A DNA stretch of 15,993 bases. Origin: Phycisphaerae bacterium. Its GTDB lineage: Bacteria > Planctomycetota > Phycisphaerae > Tepidisphaerales > Tepidisphaeraceae. Made by a program: the position numbers and the translations under genes. The notes under the pieces are model-generated. The model ran no database searches, had not been told where the DNA came from, and saw nothing but the letters and a program-made list of their open reading frames with translations. The stretch spans positions 1 to 15,993 of the forward strand of contig JAICTV010000121.1 in the NCBI GenBank assembly GCA_025936175.1, read 5' to 3'. Below are positions 1 to 13,905 of this stretch, piece after piece (positions within the stretch are counted from its first letter, which is position 1; the number at the start of each line of letters is the position of its first letter).

Positions 1-2327
<2,327 letters not shown>

Positions 2328-2524
2328 GGTGCTCTGAAAAGTGCGGAGGTTGTTCGGACGAAGACAGACGTGTGATCTTATGCGCGGGAAGTTGCGGTTC
2401 AAGGAACGGAAATTGTGCCGCACGTACGGAATCTCATTCCGAGGTACTCCGAGGAATCTCGCAAGCCGGTGGTGTCCGAGATCCCTCGGAGCACCTCGGG
2501 ATGACATCGCTCAGTCCCGACCCC

Positions 2525-3373
2525 TCAATTGAACCGCAGCGTGAGGACCCACGCACGCCAGTCTTTCTCGAATTGCTCGAACGATTGCGGTGCGGTGATC
2601 TGCTCGAGGTGTTTCAAACCCGTCGAATCGTCGTCGTGATCGTCGCGAAAACGGCGGTAGAAGTCGCGCAGCTTGCGCTTCTCCTGAAGGTACATCAGGA
2701 GATATCGCGCCTGCGCATAATTCATGCCGGTGCGCTCGGCGTTGTAGAAGTCATCGTCCGCGATCATCTCCGACAGCGGGCGCAGCTTGTTCTGACGGAT
2801 CGCGCGCTGCAATGCCGGCAGCCGCCAGTTCTCCAGCCCGCGGATGTCGTTGTCGACGAGCGTGCATTGTTCGAACAGGCTTCCCAGACCTTCGTTGAGC
2901 CAGCTCGGGGCGTCGGCAAAATCCGGCTTGATCAGCGCGTGCACCAGCTCGTGCACGAGCGTGCCGGTGCCGGTCGAGACGTTCATCAGCATGACGTTGT
3001 CGCGCTGGCGGAAGTAGCCGTAGCGCGAGACGTCCTCGTCGCCGAACCATTTCTTCGCCGCGTGGCGATACGGTTCGTCCGATTCGAACAGGAGTATCAG
3101 GATCGGCTCGGTTGGTTGGCGATCGAAGAACTTTCGATGCAGCGCATCGACCGCCGCGAGGATCGTGTTGTGGAGATAGCGATTGACGCGTTCCGCCCCG
3201 CCGTCGCCCGCGACGACGAACGGCGGCGAGACGATCGCCGTCATGTGCGCGGCGTCGAGTCGATCGCGCCACTTGTCGAGCAGCGAGCGGCACTTCTCAT
3301 CCAATGATGGCCGCGACGCGGGAGTCGCGCCGAGACAAACCAGCGCGCAGACGATCGCCGGCAGCGTTCGCAT
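2525..3373 (-). CDS. Secreted putative zinc metallopeptidase-like protein (HExxH ... NEG motif; DUF1570-like)
   Basis: 282-aa ORF with an N-terminal signal peptide (MRTLPAIVCALVCLGATPAS). It carries the motifs LVHELVHAL and WLNEGLGSLFE, an HExxH plus downstream Glu arrangement like the DUF1570 family. The frame has high GC3, whereas the overlapping + strand ORF 2372..3307 is Arg-rich with an antisense-like composition. The family assignment is from memory of the motif, not from a search. Confidence 0.7.
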   Translation of the reverse strand: MRTLPAIVCALVCLGATPASRPSLDEKCRSLLDKWRDRLDAAHMTAIVSPPFVVAGDGGAERVNRYLHNTILAAVDALHRKFFDRQPTEPILILLFESDEPYRHAAKKWFGDEDVSRYGYFRQRDNVMLMNVSTGTGTLVHELVHALIKPDFADAPSWLNEGLGSLFEQCTLVDNDIRGLENWRLPALQRAIRQNKLRPLSEMIADDDFYNAERTGMNYAQARYLLMYLQEKRKLRDFYRRFRDDHDDDSTGLKHLEQITAPQSFEQFEKDWRAWVLTLRFN

Positions 3374-3405: not shown

Positions 3406-3807
3406 TTAATCCCAGCGGAAAACGCCCTTGCCCCACGCGTACGCGTACGCGACCAGCAGCAGCGCAACGAAGATCAAGAGGCTGATAAGCAGCGCCGCCC
3501 CCTGCTGCGGCGTGCCGGTACGGACGACCGGCGCGAAGATCGTCGCCCAGGGGTAGAAGAAGATGATGTCCACGTCGATGACCAGGAAGATCATCGCGAC
3601 GATGTAGAAGCGGACGTTGAACCGCCGGCGGGTGTCGCCGACGGGGACCATGCCGCTCTCGTAGGTCGCCGCCTTGCCCGGCCCGGTGCGGCTGGGGCCG
3701 ATGATCAGCGATGCGACGATGTTGCTGACGACGAAACCTACGCCGATGATGATCAACAGCACGACCGGCAGCCAGTTGGACGGGGCATCTTCCATGTCGG
3801 GCGGCAT
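3406..3807 (-). CDS. nuoA: NADH-quinone oxidoreductase subunit A
   Basis: Translation reads MPPDMEDAPSNWLPVVLLIIIGVGFVVSNIVASLIIGPSRTGPGKAATYESGMVPVGDTRRRFNVRFYIVAMIFLVIDVDIIFFYPWATIF...LIFVALLLVAYAYAWGKGVFRWD, a canonical NuoA/ND3 with three TM helices and the conserved ESG and FD(V/I)E motifs. The track ORF starts at 3882, but the upstream 25 codons run through the heptamer repeat. ATG at 3807 (or the second ATG at 3795, MEDAPS...) gives a normal ~130-aa NuoA. Confidence 0.85.
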   Translation of the reverse strand: MPPDMEDAPSNWLPVVLLIIIGVGFVVSNIVASLIIGPSRTGPGKAATYESGMVPVGDTRRRFNVRFYIVAMIFLVIDVDIIFFYPWATIFAPVVRTGTPQQGAALLISLLIFVALLLVAYAYAWGKGVFRWD

Positions 3808-3811
3808 AGTA

Positions 3812-3906
3812 GATTTGCGATTTGCGATTTGCAATTTGCGATTTGATGCAGATTGGACGATTGAGTCCGTTTGCAATCGCAAATCGCAAATCTAAAATCG
3901 GAAATC
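3812..3906. repeat. ~95-bp imperfect palindrome made of heptamer repeats. Five direct GATTTGC-type units (3812-3846), a 26-bp spacer (itself containing GATTG x2), then five inverted GCAAATC-type units (3873-3906).
   Basis: Read directly: GATTTGC GATTTGC GATTTGC AATTTGC GATTTGA tgcagattggacgattgagtccgttt GCAATC GCAAATC GCAAATC TAAAATC GGAAATC GCAC. It fills the whole gap between the nuoA start (3807, minus) and the nuoB start (3911, plus). Confidence 0.8.
3871..3898 (+). promoter_or_regulatory. Putative sigma70-like promoter for nuoB embedded in the right repeat arm (TTGCAA -16 nt- TAAAAT), implying a very short leader. A mirrored TTGCAA(3829-3834) -17 nt- TACTAT(3811-3806) exists on the minus strand for nuoA.
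   Basis: Hexamers are read from the sequence. -35 TTGCAA at 3871-3876 matches TTGACA at 5/6. -10 TAAAAT at 3893-3898 matches TATAAT at 5/6. The spacer is 16 nt. The predicted TSS at ~3905 is 6 nt before the nuoB ATG. This is a pattern match only, and this clade's promoter consensus is unknown. Confidence 0.3.
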
Positions 3907-3910
3907 GCAC

Positions 3911-4480
3911 ATGATCGACACCCAACAGCTTCCCGACAACGTCCTGACCACGCAGCTCAAGAAGGTCGTCAACTGGGCGCGGCGCAGCTCGCTCTGGCCG
4001 ATGCCCTTCGCTACCGCGTGCTGCGGCATCGAGCTGATGGCCACCGGCGCATCGCGCTACGACATCGCCCGCTTCGGCGCCGAGGCGATGCGCTTTTCAC
4101 CGCGGCAGGCGGATCTGATGATCGTCGCCGGGCGCGTCACCATCAAAATGATGCCGGTCCTCCAGCACATCTACCAGCAGATGACCGAGCCGAAGTGGGT
4201 CATCTCGATGGGCGCGTGCGCCAGCACGGGCGGGGTGTTCGACGCGTACGCGACGATCCAGGGGATCGATCAGTTCATGCCGGTGGACGTCTACATCCCC
4301 GGCTGCCCGCCGCGACCCGAGACGCTGCTCGAAGGCGTGATGGCGATTCAGAAAATCGTCGATGAGGACGGCCTGCCTCCCGCGGGCAAGCGGCGCCCGC
4401 TGCAGATCGCAATCGAGCCGAGCTACGTCCCCTCGCCGCAGCCCGTCGTGCCGATCACCCTGGGTGGGCGCGGAATGTAA
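3911..4480 (+). CDS. nuoB: NADH-quinone oxidoreductase subunit B (20-kDa Fe-S subunit) with a ~40-aa Pro-rich C-terminal tail
   Basis: Contains [18 protein letters not shown] ... [11 protein letters not shown] ... IPGCPPRPE, which are the NuoB/PSST cysteine motifs for cluster N2. TAA at 4478-4480. Confidence 0.9.
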
Positions 4481-4542: not shown

Positions 4543-5253
4543 ATGCCCATCCTCCAAGGCGCGATCGAACGCAAGCTCTCCGCCCTCCTCGGGGCGCTCG
4601 TCACCTTCGACAAACTGAACCTGTCGCCGTTCAAGGGCGCGATCGAAGTTCTGGGCGTGCGCGTGGGCGACGTCGCCACCGTCGCGCGCGTACACGTCGA
4701 GGTCGCGATCGGCCGCGCGCTCAAGGGCGAGTTTGTCGTCAAGTCACTGACAATCGAGCGACCGACGGTGAATCTCGTCCGGCGTGCGGACGGATCGTTG
4801 AACCTTCCCAAGCCCAAGTCCAAACCTCCGGCCGCGGCGCCCGCCCCGGCGGAAGCGGAAGAAGAATCCGGCAAGTGGACGTTCGACGCGGAGAAGGTGT
4901 TGCTCGTCGACGGCCAGGTCAACATCATCGCCGGCACGTATCGAGCGTCGGTCGAGAGGCTACTGGTGGAGCTCAAACGATCCGGCGGCGCATACAACGT
5001 CACGCTTCTCGCCCATTCGATCGGCCGGCGCGACGAGCCGGCGGAACTGGGCGAACTTCGCGGCAACGGCGTCATCACCAACGCCGCCGACCTCTCCGCC
5101 CTCTCCCGCGCCGCTGCCGACCTCACGCTGCAACTGGGCGATCTGCTGAAGATGAAGCTCCGCACCGCCGAGATCGGCAGCCTGGTGTTCGACGCCGCGC
5201 TCGACGGGCACATAGACGTTGCGCGCGTCAAGAAGCTGCTCCCGCCCTCGTAG
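4543..5253 (+). CDS. Hypothetical protein with an AsmA-like repeat motif (no N-terminal TM)
   Basis: 236-aa ORF with high GC3 and normal Lys/Glu content, unlike the overlapping Arg-rich ORFs 4362..5438(+) and 4533..5528(-). The segment IEVLGVRVGDVATVARVHVEVAIGRALKGEFVVKSLTIERPTVNLVRRADGSLNL resembles the repeated beta-rich motif of AsmA/TamB-family proteins (...L.L.RP.i.L.R..DG..N). This is judged from memory only. Confidence 0.55.
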   Translation: MPILQGAIERKLSALLGALVTFDKLNLSPFKGAIEVLGVRVGDVATVARVHVEVAIGRALKGEFVVKSLTIERPTVNLVRRADGSLNLPKPKSKPPAAAPAPAEAEEESGKWTFDAEKVLLVDGQVNIIAGTYRASVERLLVELKRSGGAYNVTLLAHSIGRRDEPAELGELRGNGVITNAADLSALSRAAADLTLQLGDLLKMKLRTAEIGSLVFDAALDGHIDVARVKKLLPPS

Positions 5254-5280
5254 GGGCGACGCCTGCGTCGCCCTCTTTTG
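5253..5280 (+). terminator. Putative rho-independent terminator directly after the 4543..5253 stop: GC-rich 8-9 bp hairpin (GGGCGACG cctg CGTCGCCC) followed by TCTTTTG
   Basis: Stem pairs 5254-5261 with 5266-5273, loop 5262-5265, T-tract 5274-5279. A reverse-complementary copy of the stem at 5292-5311 allows an alternative long hairpin (see findings). Confidence 0.5.
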
Positions 5281-5353
5281 GGCGCGGCGGTGGCGACGCA
5301 GGCGTCGCCCCTACTTGTCCCACTTGCGCGCCGGCCGTACGTTTTTGTTCGCG

Positions 5354-6301
5354 ATGTCCACCCCCGAAGCGGTCCTGGTCGCCGAGCAGTTGCGCGTCCG
5401 CTTCGGCGGATTCGATGCCGTACACGATGTCTCGCTGACGCTGCGCGGCGGAGATCTGCTCGGACTGATCGGGCCCAACGGCGCCGGCAAGACGACGCTG
5501 CTCCGCGCACTCTGCGGCATCCAGCCACTCACGCGCGGCGTGGTGAATGTCCTCGGCGAGCCACTCGTCCCGGGCGCATCACACCTGATCCGCCACCTCG
5601 GCTTCACTCCCGACACGCCGGCAGTTTACGAAGAGCTCACCGTGCGCGATTTCCTCCGCTTCATCGCCAAGGGCTACGAGCACGCCGGGCCGGAAGTCGA
5701 TGAGCGCATCAATTTCTGGCTCGAGAAAGTATGGCTGCTTGAAAAAGCCGGGATGAAGATCAAGACCCTGTCGCGCGGGATGCGGCAGCGCATCGGCATC
5801 GCGCGCACGCTGCTGCCAAATCCGTCGATCGTGCTGCTGGACGAGCCCACCGCCGGCCTCGACCCCGCCGGCCGGGTCCAGTTCCGCCAACTGCTCGTGA
5901 CCTTGCGCGAACAGGGCAAAGGACTGATCGTGTCATCGCACAACCTGCTCGACATGGGCGAGTACTGCTCGCACATCGCCATCATGTCCAAGGGACAGAT
6001 CGTGCGTTACGGCACGGTCAACGAGATCGCCACCGGCGGCGACGCGAGCCGCTGCCGGTACACCATCACTCTCGCGCATCCCGTCACGCGCGTCGAGCAG
6101 ATGCTCGAATCGATCGACGACGTCGGCGACGTCGAGATCGACGGCGAGCGGATCACGATCGAGTTCATCAACGATAAGGACGCGGCGGCCGCCCTGCTGC
6201 TCAAGCTCATCGAAATGAAGCTCCCGGTCGCGTCGTTCGCGCCCAACGCGCCGGGATTGGAAGAAGCGTACTTAAGGACGGAAGTGGCGCAGGTGGATTA
6301 A
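5354..6301 (+). CDS. ABC transporter ATP-binding protein (ABC-2/CcmA-like family) with ~100-aa C-terminal accessory domain
   Basis: Walker A GPNGAGKTT, signature LSRGMRQR, Walker B IVLLDEPTAGLD, and an H-loop (SSHNL). The track ORF begins at 5219, but its first 45 codons read through the upstream terminator hairpins. ATG at 5354 (MSTPEAVLVAEQLRVRFGG...) is the biologically sensible start. TAA at 6299-6301. Confidence 0.9.
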   Translation: MSTPEAVLVAEQLRVRFGGFDAVHDVSLTLRGGDLLGLIGPNGAGKTTLLRALCGIQPLTRGVVNVLGEPLVPGASHLIRHLGFTPDTPAVYEELTVRDFLRFIAKGYEHAGPEVDERINFWLEKVWLLEKAGMKIKTLSRGMRQRIGIARTLLPNPSIVLLDEPTAGLDPAGRVQFRQLLVTLREQGKGLIVSSHNLLDMGEYCSHIAIMSKGQIVRYGTVNEIATGGDASRCRYTITLAHPVTRVEQMLESIDDVGDVEIDGERITIEFINDKDAAAALLLKLIEMKLPVASFAPNAPGLEEAYLRTEVAQVD

Positions 6302-6335
6302 GAGATTTGCGATTTGCAAATCGCAAATTGCAAAT
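6302..6335. repeat. Second copy of the GATTTGC-heptamer palindrome: GAGATTTGC GATTTGC AAATCGC AAATTGC AAAT, with a perfect 24-bp palindrome at 6305-6328
   Basis: Read directly. It sits in the 37-bp gap between the ABC ATPase stop (6301) and the permease ATG (6339). It is built from the same unit as 3812..3906. Confidence 0.8.
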
Positions 6336-6338
6336 ACC

Positions 6339-7852: not shown

Positions 7853-7988
7853 CATCACCATTCCCCTACTCATTCGTAACTGGCCTCACATCCGCCCTTT
7901 GCGCGCGATACGCCGCCGCGCGTCCTCACTGCATTCGCAACACGTCAGCGATATGATTTTCACAACTTCAAAAGGCGGAGGTTCGACT

Positions 7989-10151
7989 ATGACACAACTC
8001 TTCACATCGTCTCTTCAAACGCTCGCCGTCGGCATGCCCGACAGCAGCCAGGCCTGGGTCATGATCGCGATCGTCGGCGTGATCGTCCTGATCGTGCTGC
8101 TCGTCGGCGGACGGATGACGCTCGGCGCGTGCGGCGTGCGTTACATCCCCAACGACCGCGTCGGCATCGTCGAAAAACTATGGTCCGCCAAGGGATCGCT
8201 CGCCGAAGGCCGCATCATCGCCGCCAATGGCGAAGCCGGTTACGAAGCGCGTCTGCTTCGCGGCGGCATACACTTCCGCAAGTGGAGCTGGCAATATCGG
8301 ATCCACAAGGTGCCGCTCGTGACCATCCCGCAGGGCAAGGTCGGTTACATCTACGCCCGCGACGGCGCCACGCTGCAACCGGGACAAACCCTCGGCCGCG
8401 TCGTCGAGTGCGCGAATTTTCAGGACGCGGAGAAGTTCCTCTTCGGCGACGGCAAGACGCTGCGCGGCCAGCGCGGCCGACAGCGCTCGATCCTGCGCGA
8501 AGGCGTCTACGCGATCAACCTGGCCGCGTTCGTCGTCATCACCGAGCAGCAGGTCTATCACCTGGACCTGGGCGGCAACCGCGGCGAGCTGGAAAAGCTC
8601 GTCGGTTGGCAACAGGAATTGCGCTCGTGCAACGGCTTCAGTCCGGTCGTCATCGGCGAGGAAATGTCCGCCATCGATCCGCTCAACCCGGACAAGCAGA
8701 TCGCCGTCGACTCCATCGGCATCGTCACGATCCACGACGGTCCGTCGCTCGCGCCGGGTGAAATCATCGCCCCCGCGTGCGGCAACGACCCGCAGGAGAC
8801 GAACTATCACAACAACTACCAGGACCCCGAGGCCTTCCTTGCCGCCGGCGGACGACGCGGTCGTCAGTACGTCCCGCTCACCGACGGCACCTACTTCATC
8901 AACCGCTGGTTCGCCTCGATCGAAGTGCTGCCGAAGACGATCGTCCCGATCGGCTACGTCGGCGTGGTCGTCAGCTACTACGGGCCGATGGGCAAGGATC
9001 TCTCGGGCGAAGCCTTCCGTCACGGCGAGCGCGTCGCGCGCGGCGAGCGCGGCGTGTGGGAAAAACCCCTCGGCCCCGGCAAGTACCCGTTCAATACTTA
9101 CGCCGGCGTCCTGGTGCTCGTCCCCACAACCAACTTCGTGCTGCACTGGGTCACCGGTCGCACGGAAACGCACCGCTACGACGACACGCTCAAGTCGATC
9201 GAGATGGTGACCAAGGACGCATACGAGCCGACGCTCCCGCTCAGCGTCGTCGTGCACATCGACTACATGAAGGCCCCGTCGGTCATCCAGCGCTTCGGCG
9301 ACGTGAAGAAGCTGATCACGCAGACGCTCGATCCGATGCTGTCGGCGTACTTCCGCGACGTCGCGCACAAGCGCACGATGCTCGCGCTGCTGCAGGAACG
9401 CGATTCCATCCAGCTCGAAGCGCGAAAGGAACTGCAACGCCGGTTCGAAGAGTTCGACATCCAGTGCGTCGACGTCCTGATCGGCAAGCCCGACACGCAG
9501 GAAGCCGGCGGAAAGATCGAAACGCTGCTCGAGCAGCTTCGCCAGCGGCAGCTTTCGGTCGAGCAGATTGAAACTTATCAGCGCCAGCGCGCTGCGTCGG
9601 AAGAGCAGAAGAAGCTCAACGAAGCGCAGGCGATGGCCGCCCGGCAGACGGAGTTGACCGGCTCGAAGGTGCAGATCGAGATCGCGCGTAACCAGGCGGA
9701 TGCGGACCTGGAGCGCGCCCGCAAGCAGGCGGAGCAGACGATCGTCACCGCCGAAGCCGAATCCAAGCAGCGCATGCTCGCCGGCCAGGGCGAAGCCAAG
9801 CGCATCGGCGAGATCGGTCAAGCGGAAGCGGACGTGCTGCGTCAGAAGATCGCCAGCTTCATGGATCCGAAGCTCTACGCGGTCGCGGTGCTCGCCGAGC
9901 ACCTGAGCAAAAGCAGCCAGCCGCTGGTGCCGCAGCAAGTTTTCACTGCCGGCGGCGGTGGCGGGAGCGGCGCGGGAGACTCCTCGGGCCTTGGTTTGAT
10001 GGGTACTCTGGTGAATCTGCTGATCGCCGAAAAAAGCGGATTTAAAATTCAGAGTGCCGCAGGAAACGGCAACGCCGAATTAACTCGTGCGACACCGGTC
10101 ACGCCGGACCCCGCGCTGATCGCGCCAAAGATCGAAGCGCGAAAGAGTTAG
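7989..10151 (+). CDS. Flotillin-family SPFH/band-7 membrane protein (FloT/YqiK-like), atypically long at 720 aa
   Basis: A strong Shine-Dalgarno AAGGCGGAGG (7972-7981) sits 7 nt before ATG 7989, which argues against the upstream in-frame ATG 7899. There is an N-terminal TM helix (AWVMIAIVGVIVLIVLLVGG) and SPFH-like segments (RYIPNDRVGIVEKLW...; LKSIEMVTKDAYEPTLPLSVVVHIDY). The C-terminal region is flotillin-type and EA/Q-rich (QAEQTIVTAEAESKQRMLAGQGEAKRIGEIGQAEADVLRQKIASF...LAEHLSKSSQPLVP...GGGGGSGAG...). The opposite-strand 586-aa ORF is a shadow. Confidence 0.85.
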   Translation: MTQLFTSSLQTLAVGMPDSSQAWVMIAIVGVIVLIVLLVGGRMTLGACGVRYIPNDRVGIVEKLWSAKGSLAEGRIIAANGEAGYEARLLRGGIHFRKWSWQYRIHKVPLVTIPQGKVGYIYARDGATLQPGQTLGRVVECANFQDAEKFLFGDGKTLRGQRGRQRSILREGVYAINLAAFVVITEQQVYHLDLGGNRGELEKLVGWQQELRSCNGFSPVVIGEEMSAIDPLNPDKQIAVDSIGIVTIHDGPSLAPGEIIAPACGNDPQETNYHNNYQDPEAFLAAGGRRGRQYVPLTDGTYFINRWFASIEVLPKTIVPIGYVGVVVSYYGPMGKDLSGEAFRHGERVARGERGVWEKPLGPGKYPFNTYAGVLVLVPTTNFVLHWVTGRTETHRYDDTLKSIEMVTKDAYEPTLPLSVVVHIDYMKAPSVIQRFGDVKKLITQTLDPMLSAYFRDVAHKRTMLALLQERDSIQLEARKELQRRFEEFDIQCVDVLIGKPDTQEAGGKIETLLEQLRQRQLSVEQIETYQRQRAASEEQKKLNEAQAMAARQTELTGSKVQIEIARNQADADLERARKQAEQTIVTAEAESKQRMLAGQGEAKRIGEIGQAEADVLRQKIASFMDPKLYAVAVLAEHLSKSSQPLVPQQVFTAGGGGGSGAGDSSGLGLMGTLVNLLIAEKSGFKIQSAAGNGNAELTRATPVTPDPALIAPKIEARKS

Positions 10152-10365: not shown

Positions 10366-11397
10366 ATGAAGCGAGGGCTTCGTTACGTTGTGACCGCATG
10401 CGTTCTGGCCAGCGCCGGCGCGAGCGTCGCTCGTGCAGCGGTCGTGCTGTACAGCGACGACTTCAACACCGACACCAGCGCCAACTACAACAAGTTCATC
10501 ACGAACGGCGCGAACGCGCTGCCTTCGGGGGACGCGACGTTCGCCTACAACTACGGTGCCGCGCCCGGCTCGGGCGGATTGTCGATCCCGTCGGCGCCGC
10601 ACACCACCGATGCCTCAACGCTCGGCCTGCGACTCCGCACCGACAACCTGCAAAGTTCCTCGGCCACCGTCGTCGGCGCGACCGAGATCGCAACCAAGAC
10701 GCTGGGCCTCACCGCCGCCGGTCCCTGGACCGTTCAAGTAGACGTCTGGTCCAACTACATCGGCGGGACCAACATCTCCGCCAGCGGCTCCAACGGAACG
10801 ACCGGCGTCGCCGTCGGTGTCGGCACGTCCGGCACGTCCATCCAGTACGTCGCTGCCAACGACGGCCTGCTCACCGAAGCCTTCGGTGACAACGGCGGCG
10901 GCGCGAACCAGGCATATCGCCTCTATCTCGACAACACCCATCCCAATCCGACCACCGCCAATTACTGGGCCGCCGGCACCGGCACCAGCTCCGCCAGCTT
11001 CTCCGATCCGTATTACGTCAGCCGTTTCCCCTCGGTGAGCGCGCCTGCGGGACAATCGACTTTCTCGTCGACCCAGAGCGGCAGTACGGCGGCGGGCACA
11101 CAGGGATTCGCCTGGCACACGTGGACGATCGCCAATGACGGCACGAACGTCACGTGGTCGATCGATGGCAGCGCGATTACCACGTCGCCGCTTTCGGCCG
11201 TCACGTTCGGCGGCGGAAATGTCTCGCTCGGCAACGACGACACCGGCCTGACCGGAAACTCGACGGCCAACAACCAGCTCTTCAACGCCGAGATCTTCGA
11301 CAACTTTGTCGTTACCGACGCGGCGCCCGAGCCCGCGTCACTCGGATTGCTGGCCGTTGCCGCGGTCGGCCTCGTTCGCCGCCGTCGTTCGCACTGA
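10366..11397 (+). CDS. PEP-CTERM sorting-domain secreted protein (exosortase substrate), Gly/Ser/Thr/Ala/Asn-rich
   Basis: SD GAGGG sits 8 nt upstream of ATG 10366. Signal peptide MKRGLRYVVTACVLASAGASVARA. C-terminus ...DAAPEPASLGLLAVAAVGLVRRRRSH is a PEP motif plus hydrophobic helix plus Arg cluster, which is the PEP-CTERM architecture. The track start at 10213 is rejected because it lies upstream of the SD and signal peptide. Confidence 0.8.
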   Translation: MKRGLRYVVTACVLASAGASVARAAVVLYSDDFNTDTSANYNKFITNGANALPSGDATFAYNYGAAPGSGGLSIPSAPHTTDASTLGLRLRTDNLQSSSATVVGATEIATKTLGLTAAGPWTVQVDVWSNYIGGTNISASGSNGTTGVAVGVGTSGTSIQYVAANDGLLTEAFGDNGGGANQAYRLYLDNTHPNPTTANYWAAGTGTSSASFSDPYYVSRFPSVSAPAGQSTFSSTQSGSTAAGTQGFAWHTWTIANDGTNVTWSIDGSAITTSPLSAVTFGGGNVSLGNDDTGLTGNSTANNQLFNAEIFDNFVVTDAAPEPASLGLLAVAAVGLVRRRRSH

Positions 11398-11451
11398 GCG
11401 ATCGCCGAGCCACGCAGAAAATTCGCAATTGAATCGGCGGCGGGCCACGCT

Positions 11452-13828: not shown

Positions 13829-13901
13829 GCGGGTGTAGCTCAATTGGCAGAGCGTGGGCTTTCCAAGCCCAATGTTGAGGGTTCAACTCCCTTCACCCGC
13901 T
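13829..13901 (+). tRNA. tRNA-Gly (anticodon UCC), 73 nt, CCA not encoded
   Basis: Manual fold. Acceptor GCGGGTG/CACCCGC (7 bp). D-stem GCTC/GAGC with loop AATTGGCA. Anticodon stem TGGGC/GCCCA with loop TTTCCAA, giving anticodon TCC and A37. Variable loop ATGTT. T-stem GAGGG/CCCTT with loop TTCAACT. Discriminator U. Confidence 0.9.
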
Positions 13902-13905
13902 CATC

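Follow-up and report, generated by a model that had tools for sequence, protein, structure and literature searches.

The complex I genes nuoA and nuoB of the DNA analysed here, a Phycisphaerae contig of 15,993 nt that we call the window, appear to be ordinary, functional genes of a Tepidisphaeraceae planctomycete. Their divergent layout is best read as a long-inherited case of planctomycete operon fragmentation that is typical of this soil lineage, and we put the probability of this explanation as a whole at roughly 0.75. The arrangement resembled the scar of a rearrangement or a pair of extra genes; instead, it would be one more case of lost operon structure.

Results

The features of the window to which the evidence refers are as follows (coordinates, strand, feature):

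1-2507, minus strand: aconitase, truncated by the contig end (Pfam Aconitase, E 4.9e-168)
2525-3373, minus strand: secreted-looking HExxH metallopeptidase-like protein, 282 aa (DUF1570/Peptidase_MA_2 matches)
3406-3795, minus strand: nuoA (complex I subunit A/ND3), 129 aa (Pfam Oxidored_q4)
3796-3910, no strand: divergent intergenic spacer of 115 nt with both predicted promoters and the inverted repeat
3806-3834, minus strand: predicted nuoA promoter, -35 TTGCAA at 3834-3829, N17, -10 TACTAT at 3811-3806, 10 nt to ATG-3795
3812-3845, plus strand: left arm, about 5 tandem GATTTGC heptamers (TRF period 7, 4.9 copies)
3871-3898, plus strand: predicted nuoB promoter, -35 TTGCAA at 3871-3876, N16, -10 TAAAAT at 3893-3898, 12 nt to ATG-3911
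3875-3909, plus strand: right arm, about 5 tandem GCAAATC-type heptamers reaching the nuoB ATG (TRF period 7, 5.0 copies)
3911-4480, plus strand: nuoB (complex I subunit B/PSST), 189 aa (Pfam Oxidored_q6, NCBIfam)
4543-5253, plus strand: DUF748 (AsmA-like) protein (Pfam DUF748, E 1e-10, 40.7 bits, under the cut-off of 50)
5219-6301, plus strand: ABC transporter ATPase (Pfam ABC_tran, E 7e-29)
6304-6336, no strand: second heptamer element, palindrome (GATTTGC)2/(GCAAATC)3, ending 2 nt before the next ATG

Both genes are intact and about 115 nt apart. They are divergent, on the minus and plus strands, as the initial annotation had reported, and a tblastn search with the full set of 13 E. coli Nuo proteins confirmed that A and B are the only complex I genes in the 16-kb contig. 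The nuoA product matches Oxidored_q4 (PF00507) with E 1e-29 and 103 bits (cut-off 23.3), while its matches to the NuoA equivalog models of NCBIfam do not reach the strict cut-offs of these models. By eye, its 129-aa translation has three hydrophobic stretches, as for a 3-helix membrane protein. Databases place the nuoA start at 3807, 12 nt upstream of 3795, which gives 133 aa (P0001); we favour the 129-aa start because a conserved -10 box lies 10 nt 5' of ATG-3795. The nuoB product matches Oxidored_q6 (PF01058, E 2.9e-29) and passes the NCBIfam NuoB cut-offs (NF005012, 232.8 vs 116; TIGR01957, 224.4 vs 142.7). Hydrogenase models reach only 19-32 bits with it, which places it nearer to NuoB than to the small subunits of hydrogenases. 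It shares 51% identity with E. coli NuoB, keeps all four cluster-N2 cysteines in the motifs (A)CCGIE, GACAS and PGCPP, and finds its best matches at 82-89% identity in metagenome-assembled genomes of Tepidisphaeraceae/Tepidisphaerales. Purifying selection acts on both genes, with dN/dS values of 0.03-0.37 against relatives.

The genes that follow nuoA and nuoB were also named correctly in the initial annotation: an HExxH protein after nuoA, an AsmA-like protein (DUF748, sub-cut-off) and an ABC ATPase after nuoB. The 282-aa peptidase-like protein carries HELVH at residue 141 and has a hydrophobic N-terminus. On the minus strand the order is nuoA > peptidase-like gene > aconitase, and the same order is found in the loci L088, L092 and L219. 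The order nuoB > DUF748 is kept in L090 and L092 as well, and in L003 and L222 the ABC ATPase lies directly 3' of nuoB. When the window proteins were compared with the 80 nuoB loci described below by tblastn for common flanks, only the ABC ATPase (L003) and a Band_7 protein (L013) recurred.

Across the class Phycisphaerae, the genes for complex I do not form a single operon. The sample behind this statement comprised the best 80 nuoB loci, from 80 different assemblies or species genomes, each taken as nuoB ± 10 kb and searched by tblastn with E. coli NuoA-N; in at least 55 of the 80 the sequence continues for 2 kb or more past nuoB. In none of the 80 Phycisphaerae loci was nuoC or nuoD found within 10 kb of nuoB, and the other nuo genes near it were isolated nuoH, nuoG or nuoN only, about 8-9 kb off. 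In relatives, nuoB is flanked by housekeeping genes that have no relation to it and frequently lie on the other strand, and nuoH is likewise solitary. Comparing nuoH with nuoB of the same genome in Phycisphaerales revealed no common upstream motif. Small ORFs 5' of nuoB in Phycisphaerales (c24, c31) were considered as divergent NuoA and rejected, as they have a STAS/ACT-type look. The split of a 14-gene operon that the initial annotation envisaged is not supported by these data: nuoC/D adjoins nuoB in 0 of 80 loci, and the nuoA-nuoB pair is already detached class-wide.

The history of the orientation was read from a neighbour-joining tree of the 129-aa NuoA with arrangement states, which is not a species tree. 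Within the window's NuoA clade (74-99% identity) every member with nuoB in reach is divergent, and NuoA relatives at 99%, 91%, 74% and 73% identity have the same orientation as the window. Synonymous divergence among the clade members of divergent orientation is ~0.3-0.9. The head-to-head junction is found in the window and in four further lineages (L084, L085-87, L097/98 and L222/223); L090, L092, L219 and L221 are divergent with one to four genes in between. Outside the clade the order is nuoA > nuoB or nuoA > PMT_2 > nuoB, except in L010. The un-inverted nuoA > nuoB pair occurs there in L008, L009, L018 and six Phycisphaerales loci, which points to one change of orientation. L010, divergent yet outside the window's clade, calls for more than one change or for an error in the tree. 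The suggestion that an inversion split nuoAB thus stands insofar as nuoA > nuoB exists outside the clade and the orientation did change, but an operon split, a recent date and a role for the repeat are not supported. The un-inverted order, for which the initial annotation had proposed a synteny comparison, was found outside the clade; the relatives within it that have nuoB in reach are all divergent. Against a recent date stands the divergent orientation common to all these clade members, down to 74% NuoA identity. This clade-wide divergence comes close to the lineage-typical organisation that the initial annotation had itself named as evidence against a rearrangement.

The spacer has a GC content of ~42-48% against ~65% in the flanks and a folding z-score of -5.4; Rfam and tRNA scans of it gave no match. 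The long inverted repeat described by the initial annotation is real and sits exactly at the nuoA/nuoB junction. Its arms (3812-3843 and 3875-3906) are 32 nt each, 88% complementary and separated by 31 nt, and on the nuoA coding strand the left-arm heptamers read GCAAATC. The arrays of nuoB and of the permease stop 0-2 nt before the ATG, and the nuoA arm stops 4 nt before the alternative ATG at 3807 and 16 nt before ATG-3795. No copy of the heptamer array was found beyond nuoA. The window shares the inverted repeat with L097/98, which is more distant. Such conservation could mean that the repeat is itself under selection, perhaps as an operator or a hairpin, and is not a by-product. L085-87 and L222 have the same head-to-head junction without heptamer arrays. 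In L009, where nuoA and nuoB are co-directional, the same array lies between them, immediately 3' of the nuoA stop and oriented like the window's left arm, which leaves room for a link between array and rearrangement.

The hexamers and their spacing, rather than the repeat, are conserved at the nuoA/nuoB junction. At nuoA, the architecture TTGCAA-N16/17-TACnnT-N10-ATG occurs in 9 of 11 clade members irrespective of the upstream gene; the hexamers of L088 and L091 are variants. TTGnnn-N16-18-TA(A/G)AAT precedes nuoB in 8 of 9 clade members, and a TAGAAT or TATAAT box is found 5' of nuoB throughout the Tepidisphaerales. A consensus promoter scan scored the nuoB pair as a match (9/12) and the nuoA pair TTGCAA/TACTAT, with 8/12, under threshold. 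With the hexamers and a spacing of 16-18 nt conserved for both genes, the junction is predicted to be a bidirectional sigma-70-type promoter region. The general form of the two predicted promoters is TTGCAA-N16/17-TAnnnT, at a distance of 10-13 nt from each ATG.

GCAAATC heptamer arrays occur in at least 120 metagenome contigs, frequently in inverted pairs that could fold into a hairpin. In the metagenome sample, arrays ended within 6 nt of an ORF start in 15 of 107 cases on the GCAAATC side vs 1 of 107 on the other side. We considered the array as a nuo-specific signal and rejected this idea, since the genes downstream in metagenome contigs are assorted housekeeping genes with no functional theme. 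A literature search did not find the heptamer sequence quoted in a bacterial context.

Discussion

According to the explanation that we prefer, an old rearrangement would have set the nuoA and nuoB units head to head in the window's clade, probably in a single ancient change, and in several lineages nothing remains between the two units. nuoA would be the head of its own small unit, nuoA > peptidase > aconitase, and nuoB would stand alone or head small mixed gene strings with its own conserved predicted promoter. The 115-nt spacer may thus act as a compact bidirectional promoter with two outward-facing predicted sigma-70-type promoters, and judging from their positions the transcripts would be near-leaderless, without a Shine-Dalgarno sequence. 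In this species both promoter regions appear to be made of tandem GCAAATC, which contains the -35 hexamer, and the long inverted repeat would exist because both consist of the same tandem heptamer in mirror orientation. From heptamer promoters and a head-to-head layout it follows that the repeat is probably a by-product of a widespread array element and not the agent of an inversion.

The alternative that fares best, although we regard it as unlikely, holds that the hairpin-forming arrays create a fragile site or a hotspot for recombination, with repeated breakage and rejoining at nuoA/nuoB and no classical inversion substrate. It would account for an unusually variable Tepidisphaerales junction, at which the genes are adjacent, separated by PMT_2 or by one to four other genes, or flipped. 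Within 1.32 Mb of Phycisphaerae loci, arrays of at least 3 units occur only in nuoA/nuoB spacers and at one other site in the window; since the loci were all sampled via nuoB or nuoA, this apparent association of array and junction is biased. Other repeats and hairpins lie 5' of nuoB in L004, L008 and L014, and an array also separates nuoA from nuoB on one metagenome contig of the L137 lineage, whose NuoB is only distantly related. Most rearranged junctions, however, are without an array, and gene order all around nuoB is equally scrambled, which fits the high rate of rearrangement in planctomycetes (PMC4807772).

It is quite improbable that nuoA and nuoB are orphan or extra paralogues under separate regulation, beside a complete nuo operon elsewhere, as the initial annotation had offered as an alternative. 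The contig covers only 16 kb, and a partial duplication of nuoB is seen in L008. On the other hand, each of the best 80 nuoB loci belongs to a different assembly, and not one is part of a nuo operon or adjoins one. The shared flanks (nuoB > DUF748/ABC/Band_7 and nuoA > peptidase > aconitase) identify the window's genes as positional orthologues of the relatives' loci, with conserved predicted promoters. Purifying selection is strong, with a dN/dS of 0.03 for nuoB vs L085, and all catalytic cysteines are retained.

We give very little credence to a recent inversion via the inverted repeat that flipped nuoA off nuoB and broke an ancestral nuo operon head. The un-inverted order in L008, L009 and L018, the position of the repeat exactly at the junction and the L009 array, oriented as the left arm is in the window, all speak for it. 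As in invertible DNA segments, an inverted repeat stands where gene orientation changes. Unlike in such segments, both arms lie on one side of nuoA, flanking only a 31-nt spacer, so that recombination between them cannot flip nuoA, and the scanned ORFs of the contig encode no recombinase, transposase or invertase domain. Further points against it are the related lineages L085-87 and L222, which share the junction without the repeat, the lack of orientation polymorphism among close relatives in a divergent clade that reaches ~74% NuoA identity, and the lack of any nuo operon to break around nuoB in the 80 loci of the class. The array itself also occurs away from the junction, at 6304-6336 and in the metagenome contigs. 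As a separate candidate, an inversion between 3812-3845 and 6316-6336, which would set nuoB on the nuoA strand, was rejected: it puts nuoB upstream of nuoA and would part the ABC ATPase from the permease, and the nuoB > ABC linkage is kept in L003 and L222. Finally, although assemblers can be misled by inverted repeats, a chimeric join or false inversion at the repeat in a metagenome assembly has a negligible probability and is refuted by assemblies made independently, from other samples and projects, that show the identical or a homologous junction (L001/L002, L084, L085-87, L097/98 and L222/223).

Turning to the arrays themselves, we offer only tentatively, and consider rather doubtful, the idea that GCAAATC arrays, single or in inverted pairs, are a functional, so far undescribed start-proximal cis-element of several bacterial phyla, which in Tepidisphaeraceae would build or tune promoters and leaders of unlinked complex I genes, nuoA and nuoB among them. 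If this were true, the arrays would provide a handle on stoichiometric complex I expression without operons, and slippage-driven variation in array length would modulate expression. Cyanobacterial STRR heptamers are comparable repeats. TAACTGA heptamers form direct repeats just 5' of start codons in Beggiatoaceae, Cyanobacteria and Bacteroidetes (PMC4679880). Like these, GCAAATC arrays are tandem and intergenic with 2-10 copies, often end a few nt before an ATG with an orientation bias, and are found in distant taxa upstream of genes without a functional theme. They differ from TAACTGA repeats in their unit and in their frequent hairpin-capable inverted pairs, and the window arrays overlap conserved -35/-10 hexamers. 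This overlap suggests that they are promoter DNA and not only 5' leader. Such a widespread element adjoining start codons merits its own survey.

In comparison with the canonical nuoA-N operon of E. coli, NuoA and NuoB of the window are clear orthologues with all N2 cysteines present, whereas their genes are divergent, have unrelated neighbours and their own predicted promoters, and are not followed by nuoC-N. In the literature searched, we found no description of nuoB|nuoA as a unit that is set head to head, has a bidirectional promoter region in common and is stable in a Tepidisphaeraceae clade. The arrangement finds its closest parallel in what is known of planctomycetes and of complex I in general. 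Many planctomycete genes lie outside operons and the rearrangement rate is generally high (PMC4807772), the rRNA operons of Tepidisphaerales are unlinked (PMC13514998), and many prokaryotes have their complex I genes dispersed (PMC3144371). As in these cases, the subunit genes of Phycisphaerae complex I are scattered singly or in tiny units, nuoB and nuoH often down to single genes, and gene order turns over strongly between related genomes. The conserved predicted promoters of nuoA and nuoB, which are probably near-leaderless, could offer an entry to the question of how subunit stoichiometry is achieved without co-transcription. Since the nuoA/nuoB layout corresponds to the known loss of operons in Planctomycetota, it should not be flagged as anomalous in this lineage.

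Genes on the window

The gene calls of the initial annotation stand, since ORF listing and profile searches agree with them, and the divergent nuoA/nuoB pair is confirmed. A tblastn search with all 13 Nuo proteins of the E. coli nuo locus (L083) found no nuo genes besides A and B in the window.

Genes around the nuoA/nuoB junction, from left to right
Beyond the HELVH protein, strand of nuoA: truncated aconitase (profile search)
Left of nuoA, same strand: HELVH protein, 282 aa, hydrophobic N-terminus, DUF1570/Peptidase_MA_2 matches
3406-3795, minus strand: nuoA (Pfam Oxidored_q4, E 1e-29)
3911-4480, plus strand: nuoB (Pfam Oxidored_q6, E 2.9e-29; above the NCBIfam NuoB cut-offs)
First right of nuoB, its strand: DUF748 protein (profile search)
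Second, nuoB's strand: ABC ATPase (profile search)
Third, nuoB's strand: 479-aa protein without family match (profile search)
Fourth, nuoB's strand, 7899-10151: SPFH/Band_7 protein, 750 aa (profile search)
Fifth, nuoB's strand: PEP-CTERM protein (profile search)
Sixth, nuoB's strand: UvrD helicase (profile search)

Past the UvrD helicase gene, where gene orientation switches again, lies a tRNA-Gly gene (anticodon TCC, 13829-13902). The NuoB translation keeps all four cluster N2-binding cysteines, and its closest sequences among 185,579 species genomes belong to Tepidisphaeraceae, Tepidisphaerales and Phycisphaerae metagenome-assembled genomes (82-89% identity). The window, which makes up a whole contig of 15,993 nt, therefore stems from a soil planctomycete in the class Phycisphaerae.

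Isolation from the rest of complex I

The E. coli Nuo proteins were used to search the 80 best species loci (nuoB ±10 kb), each from a different assembly. By tblastn, nuoC or nuoD adjoined nuoB in 0/80 of these loci, at least 55 of which extend 2 kb or further beyond nuoB on its downstream side. Further Nuo matches, all solitary and about 8-9 kb off, were confined to nuoH in four loci, nuoG in one and nuoN in one; those of nuoH and nuoG lie on the strand opposite to nuoB, and the neighbours of nuoH, too, are encoded on the strand opposite to it. The neighbours of nuoB vary between genomes, have no respiratory role and frequently sit on the other strand. Only 15/80 loci have nuoA no more than 10 kb from nuoB. 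The split of a long nuo operon by an inversion is thus not borne out, as nuoC-N are already apart class-wide.

The initial annotation had also considered orphan or extra copies. With dN/dS values against four relatives of 0.03-0.20 for nuoB and 0.12-0.37 for nuoA, all key residues kept and the 80 best nuoB loci spread over 80 assemblies, nothing in the sequences analysed suggests decaying or supernumerary copies.

Gene order and orientation in relatives

Arrangement in the 15 species loci holding both nuoA and nuoB
nuoA>nuoB, adjacent and co-directional: nine loci (L008, L009, L018 and six Phycisphaerales)
nuoA, PMT_2-type membrane glycosyltransferase gene, nuoB: five loci (L003, L004, L005, L015, L017)
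nuoA and nuoB divergent with 3.7 kb between: one locus (L010)

These arrangements make an ancestral nuoA>nuoB pair plausible. The PMT_2-type gene (660-915 aa) separates nuoA from nuoB or adjoins them in L003, L004, L005, L015, L017, L021, L010 and L092, and the order nuoA>PMT_2>nuoB is common in Tepidisphaerales. L008 also has a partial second nuoB-like ORF of 83 aa (11146-11403) that aligns with residues 132-187 of E. coli NuoB. It follows the intact nuoB at a distance of about 600 nt, next to a duplicated small ORF, and looks like a local tandem duplication.

Nearer contigs were obtained by a NuoA protein search and a look-up of the closest relatives. The head-to-head junction of the window recurs in L084 (99% NuoA identity), L085-87 (91%, three samples), L097/98 (74%) and L222/223 (73%), and L090, L092, L219 and L221 are likewise divergent with one to four genes in between. 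The block nuoA>peptidase>aconitase is found again in L088, L092 and L219, and nuoB followed by DUF748, ABC or Band_7 genes in L090, L092, L003, L222, L013 and L093-96. On a neighbour-joining tree of NuoA, all members of the clade that includes the window are divergent where nuoB is in reach, whereas the sister lineages are co-directional. Since synonymous divergence inside the clade is about 0.3-0.9, these comparisons indicate that the orientation change is old, clade-typical and stably inherited, and that it is neither recent nor the split of a long operon. The initial interpretation is therefore partly supported: the orientation did change, but long ago.

A co-directional SPFH/Band_7 gene (about 745 aa) lies downstream of nuoB in three lineages (window 7899-10151; L013:6856-8979; L093:9310-11547): close behind nuoB in L093-96, about 2 kb downstream in L013, and in the window after the intervening DUF748 and ABC genes. 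Its product could be a functional partner, or the order merely residual synteny.

The inverted repeat and its heptamers

The inverted repeat reported at the junction is present. Its arms of 32 nt are 88% complementary, with a folding z-score of -5.4, and it lies in the 115-nt spacer, which is AT-richer than its flanks.

Elements of the nuoA/nuoB spacer
3812-3845: left arm, about five GATTTGC heptamers
3875-3909: right arm, about five GCAAATC-type heptamers
-35 3834-3829, -10 3811-3806, minus strand: predicted nuoA promoter (clade conservation)
-35 3871-3876, -10 3893-3898, plus strand: predicted nuoB promoter (clade conservation and consensus scan match)

The two arms are on the same side of nuoA, with just a 31-nt gap between them, and L085-87 and L222 keep the junction with the arrays missing. 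Another copy of the heptamer element, the palindrome (GATTTGC)2/(GCAAATC)3 at 6304-6336, is not at a strand switch; it starts 2 nt past the ABC ATPase stop and ends 2 nt before the next gene's ATG (6339). Moreover, the exact three-unit array is found in at least 120 metagenome contigs (GC 38-69%), single or in inverted pairs; it seems to be a widespread element, of which the papers searched contain no description. Together, these observations argue against the proposed role as inversion substrate: the repeat is neither needed for the inversion nor geometrically able to cause it.

In metagenome contigs L099-L178 the arrays often form inverted pairs 15-110 nt apart, often beside arrays of other heptamers, and on the GCAAATC side an ATG frequently follows after 1-6 nt. 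An ORF start was no more than 6 nt from the end of this side in 15/107 arrays and from that of the other side in 1/107; the genes that follow are housekeeping genes of assorted kinds. In this, the arrays resemble the TAACTGA heptamer repeats that directly precede start codons in Beggiatoaceae, Cyanobacteria and Bacteroidetes (PMC4679880).

A weaker association of arrays with the junction has some leads. Arrays also occur in the L097/98 spacer and between co-directional nuoA and nuoB in L009, and within 1.32 Mb of Phycisphaerae loci, arrays with at least three units were confined to nuoA/nuoB spacers and the window's second site. Metagenome contig L137 (1377-2419), whose distantly related NuoB is 63% identical to that of E. 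coli and 50% to the window's, has nuoA and nuoB co-directional with the same heptamer array in the gap, 17 nt ahead of the nuoB start codon; this association may be real or coincidental. As all these loci were chosen via nuoA or nuoB, the co-occurrence is a lead rather than evidence for a hotspot. Other repeats lie within the 150 nt upstream of nuoB in L004 (CATTGAC-type inverted arrays), L008 (AATCCGA-type hairpin) and L014 (ATACCCT tandem heptamers).

Predicted promoters and start codons

Upstream regions of each gene were aligned across the clade, anchored on the ATG. For nuoA, TTGCAA-N16/17-TACnnT-N10-ATG is present in 9/11 members irrespective of the upstream gene, with hexamer variants in L088 and L091; for nuoB, TTGnnn-N16-18-TA(A/G)AAT is present in 8/9, with 10-13 nt from the predicted -10 to the ATG (27-28 nt in two loci). 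The alignment shows conserved sigma-70-like hexamers at fixed distances upstream of both genes, their predicted promoters. Since the predicted -10 is so near to the ATG and no Shine-Dalgarno sequence is present, the mRNAs would probably be near-leaderless. In public gene annotation NuoA begins at ATG-3807 (133 aa); as the conserved -10 box runs into this codon and a length of 129 aa is frequent among homologues, ATG-3795 (129 aa) is the more likely start.

In this species the heptamer itself would build the -35 hexamer and the promoter spacers, with TTGCAA arising at the GCAAATT|GCAAATC junction. Two such predicted promoters in mirror image would then yield the long inverted repeat.

Just upstream of nuoB, L004, L005, L006, L010, L014, L017 and L022 share a conserved motif of about 18 nt, cTTCGTACTAGAATTTCAC, which in some loci is only 7-10 nt before the ATG. 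All seven occurrences of its core TACTA(G/T/A)AAT in 447 kb of Tepidisphaerales DNA are just upstream of nuoB, which suggests a nuoB-specific promoter or operator.

Comparison with known systems

The conserved bidirectional, probably leaderless predicted promoters and the widespread heptamer-array element are mildly interesting by-products of this analysis. The separation of nuoA and nuoB from nuoC-N is class-wide and ordinary for the lineage, in accordance with the many genes outside operons in planctomycetes (PMC4807772), the unlinked rRNA genes of Tepidisphaerales (PMC13514998) and the dispersal of complex I genes in many prokaryotes (PMC3144371). The locus is an ordinary example of operon fragmentation in planctomycetes, a kind of organisation already known.
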